A stretch of 64,000 bases of DNA from an uncultured bacterium (GTDB lineage: Bacteria; Omnitrophota; Omnitrophia; Omnitrophales; Abzuiibacteriaceae): contig CAYLXA010000007.1 in NCBI GenBank assembly GCA_964387845.1, positions 50,481-114,480 on the forward strand. The letters are read 5' to 3'. Shown here one piece after another: positions 4,237-62,680 of the stretch (within the stretch, counting starts at the first letter, position 1; each line of letters starts with the position of its first letter). The notes under the pieces were generated by a model. The model saw nothing but the letters and a program-made list of their open reading frames with translations. It made no database searches and was not told where the DNA came from. The position numbers and the translations under genes are program-made.

Positions 4237-4243
4237 AATTTTA

Positions 4244-4272
4244 ATATCAAAATCTAAATTTCAAATATCAAA
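4244..4272. promoter_or_regulatory. AT-rich cis-element ATATCAAAATCTAAATTTCAAATATCAAAA, shared with 8733-8754; flanked by inverted GATATTTGA/TTTGAATTT words
   Basis: Near-identical 15-22 nt words recur in the two intergenic regions at 4237-4318 and 8669-8866. Confidence 0.3.
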
Positions 4273-4318
4273 ACATCTTTTGAATTTTGATATTTGATAT
4301 TTGAATTTATGTTGCTGG

Positions 4319-8754: not shown

Positions 8755-8866
8755 CAAATTCTAAATTTAAATGTTTCAATAGCCGTTTTGAAATTCAATA
8801 TTTAGTAATTTGAAATTGTTTGGATATTTGAAATTTGACATTTGAATTTAAATATGAGGAGGACTC

Positions 8867-9184: not shown

Positions 9185-9730
9185 TTATTGAACTGTCTGC
9201 TCCGTAAACGCGAGCATGCGGTCGGCCTTCTCGATCTCGCGGCGGCACTCTTCAATTTCTTCCTGGGCTTTTAGCGATTGGCGTGCGAACTTCCGGTGTT
9301 CCTCAAGCGCCTCCGCTTCAACCGCGCGCGCCGCTCTCAATTTTTCGTGGAGATCTAAAATAATATCAGCATCACGCTCATTACTGCGTTCCATGCGGCT
9401 CTGCTCGATAAAAAGCTGCCAGGCTTCCTGCTTGCGCTGTTCGTAAACTATTCTTGAATCCTCAACCCGGCTGCTTAATTTCTTGATTTTGGCATTTAAT
9501 GTTTCTATTTTATTTTCACAAAAACGCTTCATCTGTTTTGCCGACAAAATTCCCGGGCCGGATTCTATTTTGCTGCCTTTCTGATCTTTCTTGAAAATGC
9601 TTTTAATTCGATGCGCAATCGACTCCTGCTTCTCGCCTGCATTCGCCGCAAAAATAATTTGCCGGCCGGGTAAACATAGTAAAACAAAAAGAAGAATTCG
9701 AATGAAGAGCTGCGCCAACCGAAGAGACAT
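9185..9730 (-). CDS. Hypothetical secreted coiled-coil protein
   Basis: 181 aa; N-terminal signal-like hydrophobic segment, charged coiled-coil remainder. Confidence 0.45.
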   Translation of the reverse strand: MSLRLAQLFIRILLFVLLCLPGRQIIFAANAGEKQESIAHRIKSIFKKDQKGSKIESGPGILSAKQMKRFCENKIETLNAKIKKLSSRVEDSRIVYEQRKQEAWQLFIEQSRMERSNERDADIILDLHEKLRAARAVEAEALEEHRKFARQSLKAQEEIEECRREIEKADRMLAFTEQTVQ

Positions 9731-21308: not shown

Positions 21309-21382
21309 TCGGGGCGAGAGGAGTTGAACCTCCGACCTCACGGTCCCGAACCGTGCGCTCTACCAAGCTAAGCTACGCCCCG
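21309..21382 (-). tRNA. tRNA-Pro (anticodon CGG)
   Basis: Cloverleaf folds by hand: acceptor CGGGGCG/CGCCCCG, D-arm GCTT..GAGC, anticodon arm CACGG-TTCGGGA-CCGTG, T-arm GGAGG-TTCAACT-CCTCT, discriminator A; CCA not encoded. Confidence 0.85.
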
Positions 21383-34488: not shown

Positions 34489-35716
34489 TATATTTGTAAG
34501 ACGTTAAACCTTCAAGGCCCATAGGCCCGCGTGCGTGAATTTTTTCTGTTGAGATGCCGATTTCGGCGCCGAACCCGAATTCGTTTCCGTCTGAGAACCG
34601 CGTAGACGCATTCACCATCACGGATGACGAATCCACAAGCGACACAAACTCACGCGCTGCTTTCTTATCTTTGGTGATAATCGCATCCGTGTGCGCAGAA
34701 CCATATTGTTGAATATGCCGAATGGCTTCGCCCGTGTTTTTCACAACCCGAATCGCAAGAATCTTATCCAAATATTCCGCATACCAATCGGATTCAACCG
34801 CCCTTTTGGCATCCGGAACCAGCCGGCGCACGGCTTGATCGCCCCGGATTTCACAGCCCGCTTTACGGAGCATTGCGGCATAGGATGGTAAAAACTTTTT
34901 CGCGACTGCCTGGTGAACCAAAAGCGTCTCCATCGCATTACAGACGCCTGTCCGCTGTAATTTGGCATTGAATGCAATCGTCAGTGCTTTCTTCAAGTCG
35001 GCGGCTTTGTCCACATACACATGACAAACGCCTTTATCGTGCTTTACGACCGGAATTCTCGATTTAGACGCTACGCGCTTGATGAGCGACTCGCCGCCGC
35101 GCGGAATGACCAAATTGATAGACGTATTCAATTTTAAAAGAATATCGATGGCTTTCCGGTCCACAGTTTGTACAAACACGACACAATCCTGTGAAAGCCC
35201 GGCACGTTTAAGGGCGGCTTGATAAATCCGTACGATGGCTTGATTCGAATGAAACGCTTCCCGGCCTCCGCGCAAGATGACGGCATTGTTGCTTTTCAGG
35301 CAAAGTGACGCACATTCGGATGTGACGTTGGGCCGTGATTCATAAATAATCAGAATAACGCCAAGCGGAACGCTGACTTTTGAGATCCGGAGCCCGTTCG
35401 GGCGCGACCAGCTTGAAAGCGTGCGGTTAATTGGATCCGGAAGTTTTGCAACTTCGCTAACGGCATCGGCCATTTTAAAAATCCGGCCGCGATTGAGCAT
35501 GAGCCGGTCGATCATGGCACCCGAAAGCTGATTGGCGCGTGCAAAGGCAAGGTCTTTTTGATTGGCGGCCTGGATTTGCTTCCAATTTTTCTTGAGCTGC
35601 TTGGCAATACCAATTAAAACCCGGTTTTTAGTCTTTGTGTCTACCGTCGCCAAACTTTGGGAAGCATGTTTTGCTTTTTCAGCCAGCTGCTTCATTTGTG
35701 ATTCTAATGTTTTCAT
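34457..35716 (-). CDS. proA: Gamma-glutamyl phosphate reductase
   Basis: 419 aa; ALDH-fold ProA, follows proB. Confidence 0.9.
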   Translation of the reverse strand: MKTLESQMKQLAEKAKHASQSLATVDTKTKNRVLIGIAKQLKKNWKQIQAANQKDLAFARANQLSGAMIDRLMLNRGRIFKMADAVSEVAKLPDPINRTLSSWSRPNGLRISKVSVPLGVILIIYESRPNVTSECASLCLKSNNAVILRGGREAFHSNQAIVRIYQAALKRAGLSQDCVVFVQTVDRKAIDILLKLNTSINLVIPRGGESLIKRVASKSRIPVVKHDKGVCHVYVDKAADLKKALTIAFNAKLQRTGVCNAMETLLVHQAVAKKFLPSYAAMLRKAGCEIRGDQAVRRLVPDAKRAVESDWYAEYLDKILAIRVVKNTGEAIRHIQQYGSAHTDAIITKDKKAAREFVSLVDSSSVMVNASTRFSDGNEFGFGAEIGISTEKIHARGPMGLEGLTSYKYIVQGNGQIRK

Positions 35717-46330: not shown

Positions 46331-46669
46331 TTACAGCGTCATTTTTTTGGCAATATCATAAACGACCGGCATTTCCCAATACTCATTCATCATCACACGG
46401 ACAACACCGGCCAGTGACGCAATGGCCAGGACGACAAACGCAAAGGAAAAGACGACATCCCCGACAACGGGAATGGCCTTCAGAATTCCGGCGGCAAGTT
46501 CAAAGATGAATAAAACCAGGCCTTGGCGGCCATGAAACTCGGCGAACTTATTGCCCCGTTTCAGGACAAGCGGTACAAAACAAAGCAGGAATAAATATCC
46601 GGTCGCGGCAAAAAACTTGCCTTCTTGGATAACGGGATCTGTGGCTTGATTTTGTGATGAGTCAGTCAT
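46331..46669 (-). CDS. DUF4870/TM2-like small membrane protein
   Basis: 112 aa; FHGRQGL motif and 2-3 TM helices. Confidence 0.55.
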   Translation of the reverse strand: MTDSSQNQATDPVIQEGKFFAATGYLFLLCFVPLVLKRGNKFAEFHGRQGLVLFIFELAAGILKAIPVVGDVVFSFAFVVLAIASLAGVVRVMMNEYWEMPVVYDIAKKMTL

Positions 46670-46739: not shown

Positions 46740-49010
46740 TCAACCAAATTCGTAACGGCAGCCCAGCACAAATTCACGCGGTGCGGCAGGCGTGACAAAT
46801 AAATAATTGCCCGCCGGCGTGGTGGCAGTTCCGAAAGATTCTGCAATCACGCCTCTCGAGAAATAGCGGTTATCGAGCAGGTTGTTCACCTTGAGAAACA
46901 CCTCAAATTGCTTCCATTCCTGGGAAACCTTTAAATCCCAGACTTGATAAGCTTTAATCCAAGAACCCGTGCTGTTAAGCAGGCTTTGGCTTGCAGTCTC
47001 AAAATTTTGCGGATGCTGGCGGCCGACAAAGATTCCGGTCAACAAAACTTTAAAACCATCGTAGGGCGCCCCTAAACGTTTGAGCGGCTGCGATTCTAAA
47101 CCGAATGTCCATTTATTTTCCGGAACTTGCCCTAAAAATCGATGCGTAAACGGCGAAAATGAGGTTGCGGGATCGTCAACGCCTTTTCGGATAATGGCTC
47201 TTGTGAGCGTATAAGTCACACGGATCAAGACCTCCCGAATCGCCTGCCATTCGCCGCTCAATTCAATTCCGTTCCGGCGCGTTTTCCCGATATTGACGTT
47301 CCGGCCGAATTGATTGATTTGAGACACCGCGCTGCTGTCAAACGCAATTTCATTTTCGGTCGTGATGTCGAAATAAGAAAATTTGACTCTGGCAATATCT
47401 TGATAGCTCAAGCGCGTCCCGGCTTCAAAGCTTTGCGCGGTTTCCGGCATCAAATTTGCCGCACTATCGCCACCGAAGGAATTAAGGTCGCTCAATGCCG
47501 GTGCGCGGAAAGCTTGTGAATAATTCCAAAAAATCTGCCCCCATTTCACCGGGCCCCAGACCGTGCCTGTGGTAATACTCAAATCGCGCCAATGACGGTT
47601 CAGATCATTGCTATGCCTTAAATAATCCTGAATCGCGGTCCAATGAAAACTGCCGCGCAGCCCGAATTCGGCAATGAGCTGGTCAAATAGAGTGACCTTT
47701 TCATGCCCAAAGATTCCGAACGCGGTTGTTTCGCCGCTCCGTAAATTTTCAATCGCAGTACGCTCAACCACCTTGCCGCCGAACGCATCCTGCCGCTTAT
47801 CGTGGGCATGGCCGCGCGTAATTTCTGCGCCGGCCAGAGAATTGGTTTGGATCCAACCAAATTCATCCTGATAAGCCAGCTGCCCGATCAGGTTGTATTC
47901 CTTAGAACGTGTTGTGACGAGATTGGTATCGGGATTAAACCCGTCGGTAAAATCAGTAAAAGTCCGAAATGTGCTCAAGAAACGGATGGTGTTCCTGCGG
48001 GCAGACGCTTGGAGAGATGCATCCAGCCGTTTATCGAGAAATTTTTTGTTGGCATTAATATAAAGAATTTTTTGCTGGGCTTTTCGGCCATCCAGCGGCT
48101 TGATGGTCTGATGATCATCTTTCTTGTACTCTTCAAGCGTTAATTCGCCGGGACTTGAAAGTGCATTCTGAACCGTTCTTAATCCGAACCGGATGCCGCC
48201 ATGCCCGTCTGCAAGTTCGTAACCAGTTTTAAAATCCATCGACGTATCGCGCCACTCGCCGTTTGCACGGAAACCGTCATTCAAATCGCGGCCCATGTTG
48301 AAATAATAATTCCAGGCACCGCCAAGGCCTGTTAATTTGTCTTGGATGGTTCCGCTAACACCATCAAAAAAATGAACGCCGCCGAAACTGGACCAATCAG
48401 CGCCGCCAAAAAATGTAAACGGCTTTTCGCTGGGTTTTCGGGTTGTGATATTGACAACGCCGCTGAAAGCGCCGCTCCCGTAAATCGCAGATGATGAGCC
48501 GCGCGCTACTTCAATAGATTCGATATTGTCCATCCTGAGAAGCGGCAAAAGCATGGAGGTCGACGAATCCACTTCGTTCATACGGACGCCATCGACAAGA
48601 AAAATCGCTTCGTTGCCTTCCGGAAATCCGCGAATCGCGAAAGTCTCATCCAAACCGTTTCCGATTTGATCAAACACATGAACGCCTTCCAGGTCCTTCA
48701 CGGCTTCCTGAAAACTGCGCGGACGGCGGGCTGTTAAGTCGCTTTCGGACCGGACAGAAACATTTGAGGTGAATTCTTTTTGATCATTTTTGAAAACCGG
48801 CAGGCGCGAGGCAGTCACTAAGACCGTATCGCTATCGGTTTTGAGTTGACTAACATCACGGCTTGTCCCGAGAAAATTACCAAAAGCTTCGGAAAGCCAT
48901 GATTTTTTGGAAGATGCTTCGGCTGTAACTTTTGAATCCGCCGAAAAACCTGAGGAACTTAAACTAAAGACAAGCAGAAAACTAGAGACAACAAGGGTAT
49001 GCCTTTTCAT
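46740..49010 (-). CDS. btuB: TonB-dependent outer-membrane receptor, probably corrinoid/BtuB-type
   Basis: 756 aa; signal peptide, plug and beta-barrel, C-terminal aromatic; immediately downstream of a cobalamin riboswitch. Confidence 0.6.
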   Translation of the reverse strand: MKRHTLVVSSFLLVFSLSSSGFSADSKVTAEASSKKSWLSEAFGNFLGTSRDVSQLKTDSDTVLVTASRLPVFKNDQKEFTSNVSVRSESDLTARRPRSFQEAVKDLEGVHVFDQIGNGLDETFAIRGFPEGNEAIFLVDGVRMNEVDSSTSMLLPLLRMDNIESIEVARGSSSAIYGSGAFSGVVNITTRKPSEKPFTFFGGADWSSFGGVHFFDGVSGTIQDKLTGLGGAWNYYFNMGRDLNDGFRANGEWRDTSMDFKTGYELADGHGGIRFGLRTVQNALSSPGELTLEEYKKDDHQTIKPLDGRKAQQKILYINANKKFLDKRLDASLQASARRNTIRFLSTFRTFTDFTDGFNPDTNLVTTRSKEYNLIGQLAYQDEFGWIQTNSLAGAEITRGHAHDKRQDAFGGKVVERTAIENLRSGETTAFGIFGHEKVTLFDQLIAEFGLRGSFHWTAIQDYLRHSNDLNRHWRDLSITTGTVWGPVKWGQIFWNYSQAFRAPALSDLNSFGGDSAANLMPETAQSFEAGTRLSYQDIARVKFSYFDITTENEIAFDSSAVSQINQFGRNVNIGKTRRNGIELSGEWQAIREVLIRVTYTLTRAIIRKGVDDPATSFSPFTHRFLGQVPENKWTFGLESQPLKRLGAPYDGFKVLLTGIFVGRQHPQNFETASQSLLNSTGSWIKAYQVWDLKVSQEWKQFEVFLKVNNLLDNRYFSRGVIAESFGTATTPAGNYLFVTPAAPREFVLGCRYEFG

Positions 49011-49091
49011 TTTTCTCTCCTTTACCCGCGTAAAGAAATCAAGAAATCGTCGCGCTCAATTATCTTGGGATGATTGAGTGCCTTCGTTAGG

Positions 49092-49330
49092 GCCGAGGTC
49101 TCCGGACTTGTGCCTATGCCAACTGAACTGTCATCCTGAGGCGTTAGCCGAAGGATCTAAACTTAGATTCTTCGCTTCGCTCAGAATGACAATATTGGTT
49201 CCTACTCACTGCGTCTTCCCGCTGATTTTCATCAGCAGTGACACTAATGCAGCTTTCGTTGCACTTACCGTTGCGGGGCAGCCATGGATTTGCACCATGT
49301 TCCCTCACTTGCCTAAAACGGTTTTCTCGC
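49092..49330 (-). ncRNA. Cobalamin (B12) riboswitch
   Basis: Minus strand has core GGGAAcatGGTGcAAATCCatgGCTGCCCCGCAACGGTAAG and 3' B12 box AAGTCCGGAGACCTCGGCC; SD AAAGGAG of the receptor lies just downstream. Confidence 0.8.
49130..49190. repeat. Palindromic MITE/REP-like element (GTCATCCTGAG...CTCAGAATGAC), copy inside riboswitch
   Basis: About 61-nt imperfect inverted repeat; related copies at 52291-52344 and 62654-62680. Confidence 0.6.
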
Positions 49331-49362
49331 TTTCAAAGATCTTGTTAAATTAAAGCGAAGGA

Positions 49363-49404: not shown

Positions 49405-49977
49405 TTAAAAATCAATTCCGAGCTGTGCGGGTAAGTTTTGGTCTTTGAAAGGATGCTTCACTTCGCGCATTTCGGTCACAAGATCTGCGGCTTCTATTAA
49501 TTCCGGCTTGGCGTTGCGCCCCGTCAGAATCACGTGAATATCCGGAGATTTCTTGCGGAGAACTTCAAGCACTTCTTGGATATTTAAATAGTCGTAATCG
49601 ACAACATAATTGATTTCATCAAATATAAGAAGCTGATACTTGCCGCTTGCAAGCTTGTCTTTACAGAGCTGCCAGGCTTCCTGGACTAATTTTTGATCAC
49701 GCGCACGGTCTTTGGTATCCCAGGTGAATCCCTCGCCTTTTTTGTGGATTTCGAAGTCGGCCCCAAGTTTTTCTGCGATTTTATGCTCGCCGCTCGTCCA
49801 GTTTCCTTTGATGAATTGAATCATGCAGACTTTCATGCCGGTGCCGAGCGCACGCAAAGCAACACCGAGCGCAGCCGTGGTTTTCCCTTTGCCGTCGCCG
49901 GTGTTAACAATAATCAAACCTTTTTTCTTTTTGAGAAGAGAGGGGTCTATCTGGGGTTTTGACTGCGGAGATTCCAT
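49405..49977 (-). CDS. cobO: Cob(I)yrinic acid a,c-diamide / corrinoid adenosyltransferase (CobO/BtuR type)
   Basis: 190 aa; P-loop GDGKGKTTAALG and CobA/CobO family pattern. Confidence 0.85.
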   Translation of the reverse strand: MESPQSKPQIDPSLLKKKKGLIIVNTGDGKGKTTAALGVALRALGTGMKVCMIQFIKGNWTSGEHKIAEKLGADFEIHKKGEGFTWDTKDRARDQKLVQEAWQLCKDKLASGKYQLLIFDEINYVVDYDYLNIQEVLEVLRKKSPDIHVILTGRNAKPELIEAADLVTEMREVKHPFKDQNLPAQLGIDF

Positions 49978-50502: not shown

Positions 50503-51111
50503 CTACTTCTTATGACCGGCTTTCCAATTCTCCAGAAAATGATAAACGCCTTTGGCCATCATATCAATTTCTAAATTCACGGGATCACCCCGCTTTTTTG
50601 ATCCGATGGTCGTCGCCCGGATGGTTTCCGGGATAATGGCCGCTTCGACTGAATCCGGGTTCAGCTTTTGGATGGTCAAACTGATGCCATCCACCGCAAT
50701 AGAACCTTTCGGCACAAAATAGCGAATTATTGAGGGCGGAATGGCAATCGCAAGAAGCAAATTCCCGCCGCGTACGGTTTTTCTCCTAATTTTTCCGACG
50801 CCGTCCACATGCCCCGAAACAAAATGCCCGCCCAGCCGGTCCATCGCCCTCAGCGACCTTTCCAAATTGACCCGGCTTCCCTTTTTCCATTTTCCGGCCG
50901 TCGTATCCCGTAAAGTTTCGGGCACCACATCTACCGAAAACGAATCATCATGTATCTCGATCACGGTCAGGCAAATTCCGCTCACGGAAATACTTTCGCC
51001 CAGTTCCAGCGAATCCGGCCACGGCTCCGATTCAATCGTGAGGCGGATCCCGCTCCGTTTTTTTTCCTTTTTAATAATAACGCCCGTTTTTTCAATGATG
51101 CCGCTGAACAT
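50503..51111 (-). CDS. ribE: Riboflavin synthase
   Basis: 202 aa; MFSGIIE.. start, two lumazine-binding repeats. Confidence 0.85.
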   Translation of the reverse strand: MFSGIIEKTGVIIKKEKKRSGIRLTIESEPWPDSLELGESISVSGICLTVIEIHDDSFSVDVVPETLRDTTAGKWKKGSRVNLERSLRAMDRLGGHFVSGHVDGVGKIRRKTVRGGNLLLAIAIPPSIIRYFVPKGSIAVDGISLTIQKLNPDSVEAAIIPETIRATTIGSKKRGDPVNLEIDMMAKGVYHFLENWKAGHKK

Positions 51112-52280
51112 TATGAAAGTTCTCCCGAAATCACCATATCTTCACCGATTTGCTGCATTTTTTGATTTCGAAGGCGGACGGCTTGGCCGATTTTCGAAAT
51201 TCCACTTCCCTCGATTGAGGTTTTTGCATTTCTACCGCCGATAATTTTCGGCGCAATCACAAAATAAATTTCATCCGCCAGCTTTTGTTCCAGGAAGCTT
51301 GCCGCCACTTCACCGCCGCCTTCAACCAAAATCGACGTGACACCGAGCTTTCCCAATTTTTCTAAAACGGAATTTAAATTGAGCCGCTGATGCCCATTCA
51401 TGGAAACGGGCAGAATCGAAACGGAATTTTTCGAGAATTTTTTAACCGCTTGTTTTAAATGAGAATCGGCACAAACCAGAATCGCGGTTGAATCATTGCG
51501 GAAAATAGCCGCCGATTTTGAAATTTCGGCTTTCGTATCCAGCACGATTTTCCACGGCTGAAACCCCCTCACCCTTCCCTCTCCCTGAGGGAGAGGGGAA
51601 CCTTTTTTTATTTTTATTCCCTCTCCCGCTTGCGGGAGAGGGGTGGGGGTGAGGGATCGAACCGTTAATTTCGGATTATCGCGCAGCACCGTATTTTTGC
51701 CGACCAAAACCGCATCGACCTGAGACCGCAGCCGGTGCGCAAAGGTTCTGGCTGCTTCGCTCGAAATCCATTTAGAATCGCCCGTGTGTGTTGCGATTTT
51801 GCCATCGATGCTTTGCGCCAGTTTCAAAATAACGTACGGCTTACGCTTGAGAATCCACTTCCGAAAAGCGCGCGTCTGGCTTTCGGCTTCCTCCCGCAGC
51901 ACGCCGGTTTTCACTCGGATCCCGGCTTTTTTTAAAATCCGGATTCCATTTCCGTTATGCTTGGGATTAGGATCGGGCGCCGCGATGACGACTGTTTTGA
52001 TGCCGCTCCGGATGATGGATTGGACGCACGGCGGTGTTTTTCCCCAGCTCGAACAAGGTTCTAACGTCACATAAAGCGTTGCGCCGCGCGCACGCGTGCC
52101 GGCTTTTTTGAGTGCGCCCAATTCAGCATGTGCGCCGCCGTAAAATTGATGAAAGCCTTCGGAAATGATTTTCTGATTTTTAACAACGCAGGCGCCCACA
52201 ACGGGATTGGGGCTCGTAAATCCTCGGCCGCGTTCGGCCAGCGCCAAAGCGCGCTTCATGAATGTATCGTGATTTTTCAT
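51111..52280 (-). CDS. ribD: Bifunctional riboflavin biosynthesis deaminase/reductase RibD, carrying an in-frame ~30-aa insert
   Basis: 389 aa; CMP/dCMP deaminase zinc motif plus RibD_C reductase; insert SLTPTPLPQAGEGIKIKKGSPLPQGEGRVRGF lies in a variable loop. Confidence 0.9.
   Translation of the reverse strand: MKNHDTFMKRALALAERGRGFTSPNPVVGACVVKNQKIISEGFHQFYGGAHAELGALKKAGTRARGATLYVTLEPCSSWGKTPPCVQSIIRSGIKTVVIAAPDPNPKHNGNGIRILKKAGIRVKTGVLREEAESQTRAFRKWILKRKPYVILKLAQSIDGKIATHTGDSKWISSEAARTFAHRLRSQVDAVLVGKNTVLRDNPKLTVRSLTPTPLPQAGEGIKIKKGSPLPQGEGRVRGFQPWKIVLDTKAEISKSAAIFRNDSTAILVCADSHLKQAVKKFSKNSVSILPVSMNGHQRLNLNSVLEKLGKLGVTSILVEGGGEVAASFLEQKLADEIYFVIAPKIIGGRNAKTSIEGSGISKIGQAVRLRNQKMQQIGEDMVISGELS
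51564..51655. repeat. Nested palindromic element inside ribD coding sequence
   Basis: Outer inverted repeat CCCCCTCACCC...GGGTGGGGGTGAGGG enclosing hairpins CCCTCTCCC-tga-GGGAGAGGG and CCCTCTCCCgcttgcGGGAGAGGG; length keeps the ribD frame. Confidence 0.6.
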
Positions 52281-52290
52281 GGTTCAATTC

Positions 52291-52344
52291 GTCATTCTGA
52301 GGCGAAGCCGAAGAATCTAGATCCTTCGCTTCGCTCAGGATGAC
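52291..52344. repeat. Palindromic MITE/REP-like element filling the nusB-ribD spacer
   Basis: GTCATTCTGAGGCGAAGCCGAAGAATCTAG / ATCCTTCGCTTCGCTCAGGATGAC inverted arms; same family as 49130-49190. Confidence 0.6.
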
Positions 52345-52350
52345 GGTTTT

Positions 52351-52773
52351 TTATGTTTGTTTCGATTTCGCGGATTCCGTGTGACAAATTTTATCGAGCA
52401 CGCCGTTGACAAACTTGCCGGATTCTTCCTGCGAATATTTTTTTGCTAAATTGACGGCTTCATTGATTGAAACTTTGGGCGGGATGTCATCCATAAACAA
52501 AAGTTCATAGGTAGAATAACGAAGAATATTGCGGTCGACGATGGCCATACGGTCCAAATTCCAATTTTCCGCGTAACGCGCCAGGACCTCGTCGATTTGA
52601 GAGCGTTTTTCGATCGTACCTTTGACGATTTTTTCCGTAAATCCCTTCACTTCGTCCGAAGCATCGTTGGTTTTCCAAAATTCCTGCAGGACCTGATCCG
52701 CAGAATATTGGGTCATTTCGATTTCATACAAAAGCTGGATAACGTATTCACGTGATTGTGTGCGTTTGCGCAT
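52351..52773 (-). CDS. nusB: Transcription antitermination factor NusB
   Basis: 140 aa; NusB fold, embedded in the rib operon. Confidence 0.85.
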
Positions 52774-62653: not shown

Positions 62654-62680
62654 GTCATCCTGAGCGCAGCGAAGGATCTA
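62654..62680. repeat. Half-copy (left arm) of the GTCATCCTGAGCG palindromic element in the ileS leader
   Basis: GTCATCCTGAGCGCAGCGAAGGATCTA matches the left arm of 49130-49190 and 52291-52344; a degenerate CGTCATCCTGGCACC lies about 200 nt further on. Confidence 0.4.

Follow-up and report, generated by a model that had tools for sequence, protein, structure and literature searches.

We analyzed a cobalamin (vitamin B12) riboswitch on the minus strand of a 64-kb stretch of DNA from an uncultured bacterium (contig CAYLXA010000007.1; the whole stretch is called the window below), where it lies upstream of a TonB-dependent receptor gene and carries a 61-nt palindromic element in its peripheral part. 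Our results suggested a working translational B12 switch that tolerates an insertion, resembling repetitive extragenic palindromic (REP) sequences, in the loop of a dispensable peripheral hairpin, and we put the probability of this reading at roughly 0.7. Specifically, the leader is a cobalamin riboswitch of class-I type, with a long P6 extension, and the element is a copy of a dispersed repeat.

Riboswitch Identity and Insertion Site

The scan of the whole window with Rfam 15 at gathering thresholds returned two matches, a tRNA at 21309-21382 and RF00174 (Cobalamin) at 49096-49305 on the minus strand, the latter with 68.0 bits against a gathering score of 31.5 (E = 1.2e-14). The alignment of the leader spans model positions 45-169 with no non-standard pairs flagged, and includes the consensus blocks AGGGAA, GGUGCAAAUCC, GCUGCCCCGCAACGGUAA, CACUG...CGGGAAG and AAGUCCGGAGACCU. 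The parts of the leader and of the element are as follows.

49087..49316, minus strand: cobalamin riboswitch aptamer including helix P2, in which UUAGG (49316-49312) pairs with CCUAA (49091-49087); from the RF00174 match, with RNAalifold on five orthologs for P2 and P3
49270..49282, minus strand: P5/L5 segment GCUGCCCCGCAAC, whose CCCGC is complementary to the L13 loop; identical at 11 of 13 positions across five orthologs, with two differences in L007
49091..49109, minus strand: B12 box AAGUCCGGAGACCUCGGCC; from sequence reading and the RF00174 alignment
49130..49190, minus strand: palindromic repeat element GTCATTCTGAGCGAAGCGAAGAATC-TAAGTTTA-GATCCTTCGGCTAACGCCTCAGGATGAC, 61 nt, located in the host hairpin loop and made of two inverted arms separated by an 8-nt spacer
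49166..49190, minus strand: arm A GTCATTCTGAGCGAAGCGAAGAATC, which holds GCGAAGC and is an instance of a pattern with exact 25-mer matches across many phyla
49130..49157, plus strand: arm B GTCATCCTGAGGCGTTAGCCGAAGGATC, with the variant tip GCGTTAGC; similar GGC...GCC tips occur elsewhere, for example in L058 and L068
49194..49198, minus strand: 5' strand CCAAU of the facultative host hairpin in the P6 extension; aligns with UCAAC (L002) and CCA (L005) after excision of the element
49119..49123, minus strand: 3' strand GUUGG of the facultative host hairpin; from the excised alignment and the partition-function fold

RNAalifold on the five closest orthologous leaders, run after excision of the element from that of the window, predicted 44 pairs in P2, P3, P4, P5, P6 and the extension helices, all of which are kept in the window. 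Compensatory changes, which alter both sides and keep the pairing, were found in 18 of these pairs (for example GUGC/GCAC in the window versus GCAC/GUGC in L002) and give moderate support to the fold. A reading of the DNA made earlier from the sequence alone (the sequence-only reading) had described a canonical B12 riboswitch on the minus strand; the score at twice the threshold, this covariation and the conserved expression platform described below bear it out, and all the sequence strings it quoted were found on that strand where it had placed them.

The same reading had located the element in a peripheral variable region between the core and the B12 box, and had proposed a covariance-model search as a check. 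That search (cmscan) scored the region and assigned 83 nt, including the whole element, to an insert state between RF00174 model positions 151 and 152, where no modelled helix is split. The site comes after the 3' strand of the long arm in the P6 extension, immediately 5' of the helix strand running into the B12 box. In the alignment with the 61 nt excised, the window reads CCAAU-AUU[element]AGUUCA-GUUGG at this place, against UCAAC-GAAA-GUUGA in L002 and CCA-GCAA-UGG in L005, and the C-G to U-A change in the host stem between the window and L002 is compensatory. The small hairpin formed by the window host stem is homologous to those of L002 and L005, and the element therefore occupies its apical loop; this hairpin is dispensable because three of seven relatives lack it.

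The element hairpin alone was predicted at -32.5 kcal/mol, and in the partition-function fold of the whole leader the pair probability was about 1.0 for the element stem and about 0.9 for the host stem. In this modelled fold the element is a self-contained extension of the host hairpin. The most likely course of events is that a 61-nt copy of a dispersed REP-like repeat entered the apical loop of the P6-extension hairpin in the window lineage, and that its two arms zip into one long and very stable hairpin prolonging the host stem, so that the flanking riboswitch strands would be joined as before.

Orthologous Leaders

Seven homologous leaders were compared with that of the window, and RF00174 matched every one of them at 72-85.5 bits. 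The identity of their receptors to the window receptor and the length of the insert at model positions 151/152 are listed here.

Window leader: receptor 100%, insert 83 nt
L002 leader: receptor identity 81%, insert 18 nt
L005 leader: receptor identity 61%, insert 15 nt
L003 leader: receptor identity 61%, insert 0 nt
L007 leader: receptor identity 53%, insert 0 nt
L152 leader: receptor identity 58%, insert 6 nt
L151 leader: receptor identity 62%, insert 42 nt
L154 leader: receptor identity 45%, insert 31 nt

The palindromic element was absent from all seven leaders and from the rest of the DNA fetched for these relatives. Positions 151/152 are thus a naturally variable hairpin site, with inserts of 0-42 nt in the relatives, and the comparison with orthologous leaders that the sequence-only reading had suggested sets the window apart from them all. 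The order cobA-leader-receptor is kept in relatives with receptors 81% to 53% identical, and the 45% homolog has a btuF/btuC-like gene context instead. In addition, the linker between the aptamer and P13 (window 49036-49090) varies from about 10 nt in L003 and L005 to about 110 nt in L002 and L007, and is a second variable site of the leader; in L007 it holds perfect palindromes such as AAAATTGGCA-AC-TGCCAATTTT.

Expression Platform

The following features lie downstream and upstream of the aptamer.

49020..49035, minus strand: P13 hairpin CUUUAC-GCGG-GUAAAG, 6 bp, pair probability 0.94-0.99; its loop region GCGGG is complementary to CCCGC of L5
49015..49023, minus strand: Shine-Dalgarno region AAAGGAGAG (AAAGGAG), overlapping the 3' strand of P13
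49363..49391, minus strand: promoter-like TTGACC-17-TAAACT upstream of the riboswitch, from a consensus scan only (9 of 12 matches)

The 18-nt block CUUUACGCGGGUAAAGGAG, which forms P13, is identical in all five orthologs, and the receptor start codon follows at 49008-49010. The TTGAC block of the promoter-like site is conserved in four of five orthologous leaders, and a terminator scan detected no terminator-like site in the window leader. From established knowledge of the cobalamin riboswitch family, ligand binding would make L5 (CCCGC) kiss the P13 loop (GCGGG) and hold P13 closed over the Shine-Dalgarno region, by which translation of the receptor would be blocked. The L5-L13 kissing loop is a regulatory contact common to Cbl-I and Cbl-II (cobalamin class-I and class-II) switches (PMC7367189).

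These features also bear on whether the insertion has knocked out the riboswitch, which would then be decaying and leave the receptor unregulated or silent. The window leader does have the lowest covariance-model score of the eight and the largest insert at the site. Nevertheless, all core motifs and helices are intact, the P13 and Shine-Dalgarno sequences are identical to those of the orthologs, L5 is likewise conserved, and the drop in score is what the insert-state penalty would be expected to cause; we regard a loss of function as very improbable.

Probable Tolerance, Possible Altered Regulation

The sequence-only reading had offered two outcomes, an extended peripheral stem that is tolerated or an altered regulation of the receptor. 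The first is better supported and the second less so, because the insert site carries 0-42 nt of unrelated sequence in the relatives; most likely, the element is structurally insulated in the RNA, tolerated and close to neutral. Several points weigh against this view. First, the class-I P7-P11 extension contributes to the adenosyl pocket, and ligand selectivity can shift with small changes at the periphery (PMC7367189), so that an 83-nt insertion need not be neutral. Second, this insert is twice the largest natural one at the site (42 nt), and the window leader scores lowest of the eight, with 68 bits versus 72-85.5. Third, the host hairpins of the two closest relatives (L002 and L005) end in GNRA loops, GAAA and GCAA, and a GNRA tertiary contact could have been lost through the insertion. 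Fourth, purifying selection after the insertion would be demonstrable only with an age for the insertion, and the view of copy number and of any associated transposase is that given by 64 kb of the genome.

Some of these points would speak for an insertion that alters regulation through folding kinetics, affinity, corrinoid selectivity or an added input, for example from a hairpin-recognizing protein or RNase. The P6 extension shapes the adenosyl pocket, the GNRA loop of L002 and L005 has been replaced in the window, about 65 extra nt are transcribed ahead of the B12 box, and the 5' arm is able to fold alone before the 3' arm is made. We consider altered regulation unlikely all the same: the seven relatives carry 0-42 nt of unrelated sequence at this site, three of them with no hairpin there; the element hairpin is self-contained, as its pair probability indicates; control is apparently translational with no terminator-like site, which makes timing less important; and arms in other genomes showed no strand bias relative to co-directional neighbor genes (33 sense versus 26 antisense, from crude open reading frame (ORF) calls).

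Other Copies in the Window and Authenticity of the Locus

Copy counts given here refer to the 64-kb window of the genome. A pattern search combined with a fuzzy arm search recovered five good arms within 13.6 kb, which make up two full copies and one solo arm; the two loci besides the riboswitch are these.

52291..52344, minus strand: second full copy, 54 nt with a 2-nt spacer, in the nusB-ribD spacer
62654..62678, plus strand: solo arm GTCATCCTGAGCGCAGCGAAGGATC, 25 nt, located 15 nt upstream of the ileS start codon

Recurrence of the element at both places had been claimed from the sequence alone. The claim held for the nusB-ribD spacer, with its full 54-nt copy; the ileS leader has one 25-nt arm rather than the whole element, and no partner arm was found within 100 nt of it. 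The five good arms carry the 13-mer head with 0-1 mismatch, and at up to two mismatches the head had 14 matches in the window, compared with 3.6 on average and 8 at most in 100 shuffles. The two-mismatch matches near 35100 and 35270 were rejected as arms, since they have no arm sequence past the head and look like chance. Both full copies are dimers of unlike arms, in each of which one arm has ATTCT/AGAAT and the other arm ATCCT/AGGAT, and the tags of the five arms read TGTC three times and CGTC twice.

The spacer between nusB and ribD measures 70 nt in the window versus 46, 1 and 8 nt in L002, L003 and L007, respectively. In L002 it contains a different palindrome (L002:765-810), ATGTAGGGGC-tattgcaata-CGCCCCCTACAT, with a GTAG head as in classical REPs, and it seems that this spacer collects hairpin repeats. 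Read on the plus strand, the window copy gives a strong hairpin followed by GGTTTTTTA at 52345-52353, which would resemble an intrinsic terminator for antisense transcription; the terminator scan did not list it because loop and stem are outside its limits. Other repeats of the window include direct repeats at 16567-16866/19100-19399 and 15832-15876/18643-18687, which are 2533-2811 nt apart with 77-91% identity and probably mark tandem paralogous genes, and AT-rich repeats (TTTGATATTTGA...) in direct and inverted copies at 4240-4309, 8817-8852 and 9480-9511 (families D3, I1 and I11).

An independent Logan contig, SRR15237813_2146 (L001:1-61 corresponds to the window from 49190 downwards), begins exactly at base 1 of the element and continues past the riboswitch 3' half into the receptor gene. 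Its contiguity links the element to the riboswitch-receptor locus, and its start is a repeat-induced assembly break, which hints at further genomic copies. That assemblies break at this repeat would speak for an artefact, in which the assembler placed or misjoined it at this locus. Against an artefact of this kind, L001 carries the complete element in one piece with the riboswitch 3' half and the receptor gene. In addition, the two riboswitch halves flanking the element fit each other, and their arrangement agrees with the synteny in all relatives; we therefore give a misassembly hardly any credence.

The Repeat Family in Other Genomes

An exact-pattern scan with GTCATYCTGAGCGNAGCGAAGRATC on one genome per species returned at least 120 stretches, and the arm and dimer statistics below hold among the matches listed. 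The arm pattern fixed GTC and allowed the Y and R positions to vary independently. The arm has the form (T)GTC-ATYCT-GA-GCGN(N)AGC-GA-AGRAT-C with a length of 25-28 nt, and exact 25-mer arms occur, solo or as inverted pairs, in about 20 phylum-level groups. These groups, CPR bacteria among them, include Nitrospirota, Chloroflexota, Acidobacteriota, Saccharibacteria, Gracilibacteria, Bacteroidota, Firmicutes, Planctomycetota, Verrucomicrobiota, Gemmatimonadota, Proteobacteria, Fibrobacterota and Omnitrophota, and two of the matches are isolate genomes, Mucilaginibacter and Hymenobacter. The presence of a dispersed element inserted in the leader, as the sequence-only reading had it, thus agrees with its lack in seven relatives, with the further copies in the window and with this distribution.

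The distribution bears as well on the view that the long hairpin arose natively, by expansion of the peripheral riboswitch stem in this lineage. In favor of it, the site is naturally variable, and relatives have hairpins of other sequence there. However, the arms are also found in the nusB-ribD spacer and the ileS leader, exact 25-mers recur across these phylum-level groups, and the host stem is still recognizable around the element, so that a native origin is extremely unlikely.

An inverted partner was found for 91 of 143 arms (64%), the remaining 36% being solo, and the paired elements measured 61-183 nt; the window copies (54 and 61 nt) are at the short end of this size range. The base before GTC was T in 122 of 149 arms (82%) and C in 17 (11%). 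In the tail C-T-C, the T was present in 118/149 and the C in 84/149, and the middle loop base was free (C 61, A 50, T 25, G 13). The arm folds into a 5-bp stem, tandem G.A, G-C and C-G pairs, and a GNA loop. Importantly, the Y and R positions paired Watson-Crick within the arm in 146 of 151 cases, the same loci held other self-complementary arm stems (ATTCC/GGAAT, ATTTC/GAAAT, ATGTT/AACAT, ATGCT/AGCAT and ACCCT/AGGGT), and arms with unlike stems were joined in 41 of 76 dimers. This covariation within arms and the unlike-arm dimers argue that the unit under selection is the 25-nt arm rather than the 61-nt palindrome.

All five arm tips of the window are GCGNAGC or GCGNNAGC, an exact mini-hairpin DNA motif, and arm B of the riboswitch copy has GCGTTAGC. 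As DNA, this motif has a far higher stability than as RNA, and SSB binds it poorly (PMC13037366). Together with the pairing within arms and the lack of strand bias, this suggests that the repeat persists through its single-stranded DNA form. It would then probably be an entity of single-stranded DNA that is only incidentally part of a transcribed leader.

Flanks of dimers in other genomes showed a slightly raised complementarity, 3.70/10 compared with 3.04 +/- 0.16 for shuffled partners. In L132, L139, L142, L144, L145 and L150, which represent one metagenomic lineage, the element lies within the loop of a host palindrome of 18 bp (ATAGGCGTGAACTTCAGC ... GCTGAAGTTCACGCCTAT), a position similar to that of the riboswitch copy inside the loop of its host hairpin. 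A bolder proposal, which we consider rather doubtful, is that the arms form one pan-bacterial family of tagged DNA mini-hairpins, defined by (T)GTC, a covarying 5-bp stem, tandem G.A and GCGNAGC, that is spread by a conserved host process on single-stranded DNA and prefers the loops of existing hairpins. We know of no dedicated transposase for this arm family.

Two composite arrangements were also observed. A truncated head, GTCATCCTGAGC, lies in the same orientation within 40 nt before 18 of 143 arms, at loci including L039, L040, L042, L055, L076, L077, L091, L097, L101, L109 and L117. In the Acidobacteriota loci L016, L023, L028, L079, L106 and L120, an outer inverted repeat, GGCTGCGGAAAAA, stands about 10 nt beyond each arm, and together with the arms makes a composite element of about 140 nt.

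Searches elsewhere gave little. The plasmid collection had only two short arm matches, on Calothrix plasmids, and the literature returned for the element sequence or its peptide translation only primers and unrelated text. Rfam cmscan of the nusB-ribD copy at E up to 10 gave only generic microRNA and snoRNA hairpin matches far below threshold; a curated Rfam family was accordingly rejected as the identity of the element, no match being above threshold. A hammerhead-like ribozyme, considered for its GUC followed by CUGA, was rejected as well: the core needs CUGANGA after stem I, and the element has CUGAGCG inside a stem.

The metagenome collection was scanned with one exact pattern, CTCAGRATGAC followed after 3-33 nt by the B12 box, for further repeats in riboswitches. 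This returned 21 loci, several of which are repeat copies nested in other palindromes, and RF00174 matched in none of the 20 loci scanned (L150, identical in the matched region to five of these, was left out). In the literature searched, no paper links REP-type repeats with riboswitch aptamers. Within this one pattern and one collection, the riboswitch insertion looks like a single lineage-specific event.

Gene Context

The genes on the minus strand are arranged in the order nusB, ribD, ribE, a TIGR04073-family gene, cobA/btuR, the leader and the TonB-dependent receptor gene, with nusB at 52351-52773 and ribD at 51111-52280 of the window. The two genes next to the leader are as follows.

46740..49010, minus strand: TonB-dependent receptor gene, 756 aa, with plug and beta-barrel domains, downstream of the riboswitch
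49405..49977, minus strand: cobA/btuR corrinoid adenosyltransferase gene, directly upstream; PF02572, and TIGR00708 at 219 versus a cut-off of 167.75

Domain and family profiles agreed with the identities previously given for NusB, RibD, IleRS, the TonB-dependent receptor and CobA/BtuR. The receptor is below all NCBIfam cut-offs (BtuB, TIGR01779: 104 versus 599.7), and its closest named homolog is from a Candidatus Omnitrophica metagenome-assembled genome (MAG). Since the receptor reaches no NCBIfam cut-off, it is the riboswitch and the neighboring genes that make B12 its probable substrate. In relatives, the genes after that of the receptor are a conserved one encoding about 112 aa, with a weak MamF_MmsF match (window 46331-46669, minus strand), then one of about 520 aa that lacks a strong family assignment and one with a BFN domain; the receptor and these following genes may constitute an uncharacterized corrinoid uptake set in Omnitrophota. 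Additionally, a 91-aa ORF at 49078-49353 on the plus strand crosses the riboswitch and the element on the opposite strand; it is almost certainly spurious and a risk for automatic annotation.

Implications

The locus offers a natural insertion-tolerance experiment, in which a 61-nt hairpin sits in an otherwise intact class-I switch and a close relative represents the state before insertion. Large cargo can probably be grafted at this insert site without breaking the aptamer, and the pair of leaders from the window and the relative is suited to asking how far the peripheral extension sets ligand choice. For annotation, repeats of the arm family break assemblies, as in L001, and underlie spurious ORFs. 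A side result is possibly weightier than the riboswitch itself: about 20 phylum-level groups share, base for base, a 25-nt arm whose tip is a mini-hairpin DNA, and this family deserves a study of its own if it falls outside the existing CGTC-REP description discussed below. If the pan-bacterial hairpin-loop proposal were true, the riboswitch copy would be the first case in which the hairpin loops of structured-RNA genes are targets.

Comparison With Known Systems

Cbl-I architecture is exemplified by the E. coli btuB leader and by T. tengcongensis 4GMA. With RF00174 leaders of this class the window leader shares GGGAA, the GGUGNAAAUCC L4 hairpin, L5, the B12 box, the long P6 extension, the L5-L13 complementarity and a P13 over the ribosome-binding site, and it likewise precedes a TonB-dependent receptor gene and adjoins cobA. 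It differs in its 83-nt insert, 61 nt of which are a dispersed repeat, in the facultative P6-extension hairpin, in a receptor that is no BtuB equivalog by NCBIfam, and in its host, an Omnitrophota-like MAG lineage.

GTAG-headed REPs and REPINs (REP doublets forming hairpins) are mobilized by RAYT (TnpA-REP) transposases, and REP families are usually species-specific. The element shares with them short hairpin units, an unpaired 5' tag and inverted pairs that can fold as one hairpin; it is also found in intergenic and transcribed positions, and its action is presumed to be at single-stranded DNA. In contrast, the arm head is (T/C)GTC rather than GT[AG]G, and the arm is identical across phyla, unlike the usually species-bound REP families. 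No RAYT gene was noticed among the window ORFs, which were scanned in part with no systematic search, and the element was rejected as a GTAG/RAYT REP because its head differs.

The element also resembles a miniature inverted-repeat transposable element (MITE) in being small, non-coding and dispersed, and in having a variable center bounded by terminal inverted repeats of about 25 nt. Unlike in a MITE, each arm is itself a conserved hairpin and solo arms are common (36%). Neither full copy has a target-site duplication, the plus-strand flanks being GAACT/AATAT at copy 1 and AATTC/GGTTT at copy 2, and identification as a textbook MITE was rejected on this ground. No parent insertion sequence with the same ends was noticed in the at least 120 loci of up to 8 kb, with no systematic search for one. 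L070, which has two inverted arms 2.3 kb apart, was considered as an autonomous parent and rejected, as the genes there are groEL paralogs and rsmB, with no transposase.

The mini-hairpin DNA d(GCGNAGC)/d(GCGNNAGC) of Hirao and co-workers (PMC13037366) is matched exactly by the window tips, and the middle loop base is likewise free. It differs in kind, being a physico-chemical motif from phage origins and single-strand initiation sites rather than a repeat family (PMC13037366), and we infer its role in the element from the likeness.

The closest description found for the arm is the CGTC-tagged REP superfamily (Di Nocera, De Gregorio and Rocco 2013; PMC3733652), which the arm resembles when compared by description, not against the consensus sequences of its four families. 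The superfamily includes Neisseria dRS3 and Rickettsia RPE-4 and RPE-6, and its repeats are listed in 5 phyla; a unit has an unpaired CGTC/TGTC tag, an 8-9 bp stem starting A-T, a loop of 4-5 nt and a short tail, mostly CCA. The units are mostly inverted dimers with variable spacers, frequently of unlike arms, with no associated transposase, and dimers sometimes lie within host palindromes (PMC3733652).

Measured against this description, the arm shares the unpaired CGTC/TGTC end tag, and its units are likewise single or inverted dimers, with variable spacers and common unlike-arm dimers. A transposase is not known for it either, and here too some dimers lie within host palindromes. It has nine stem positions starting A-T, T-A, of which positions 6-7 are tandem G.A, leaving 5 + 2 Watson-Crick pairs, and its tail is short and C-initial, but CTC rather than CCA. 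The differences are that the stem of the window-type arm is interrupted by this tandem G.A, that the GNA loop has 3 nt instead of 4-5 (4 nt, GTTA, in the arm B variant), and that the arm is seen in about 20 phylum-level groups, as against the 5 phyla of PMC3733652. Taken together, the locus combines a known riboswitch class bearing an unusual cargo with a repeat of a known general type, and is no new kind of system.

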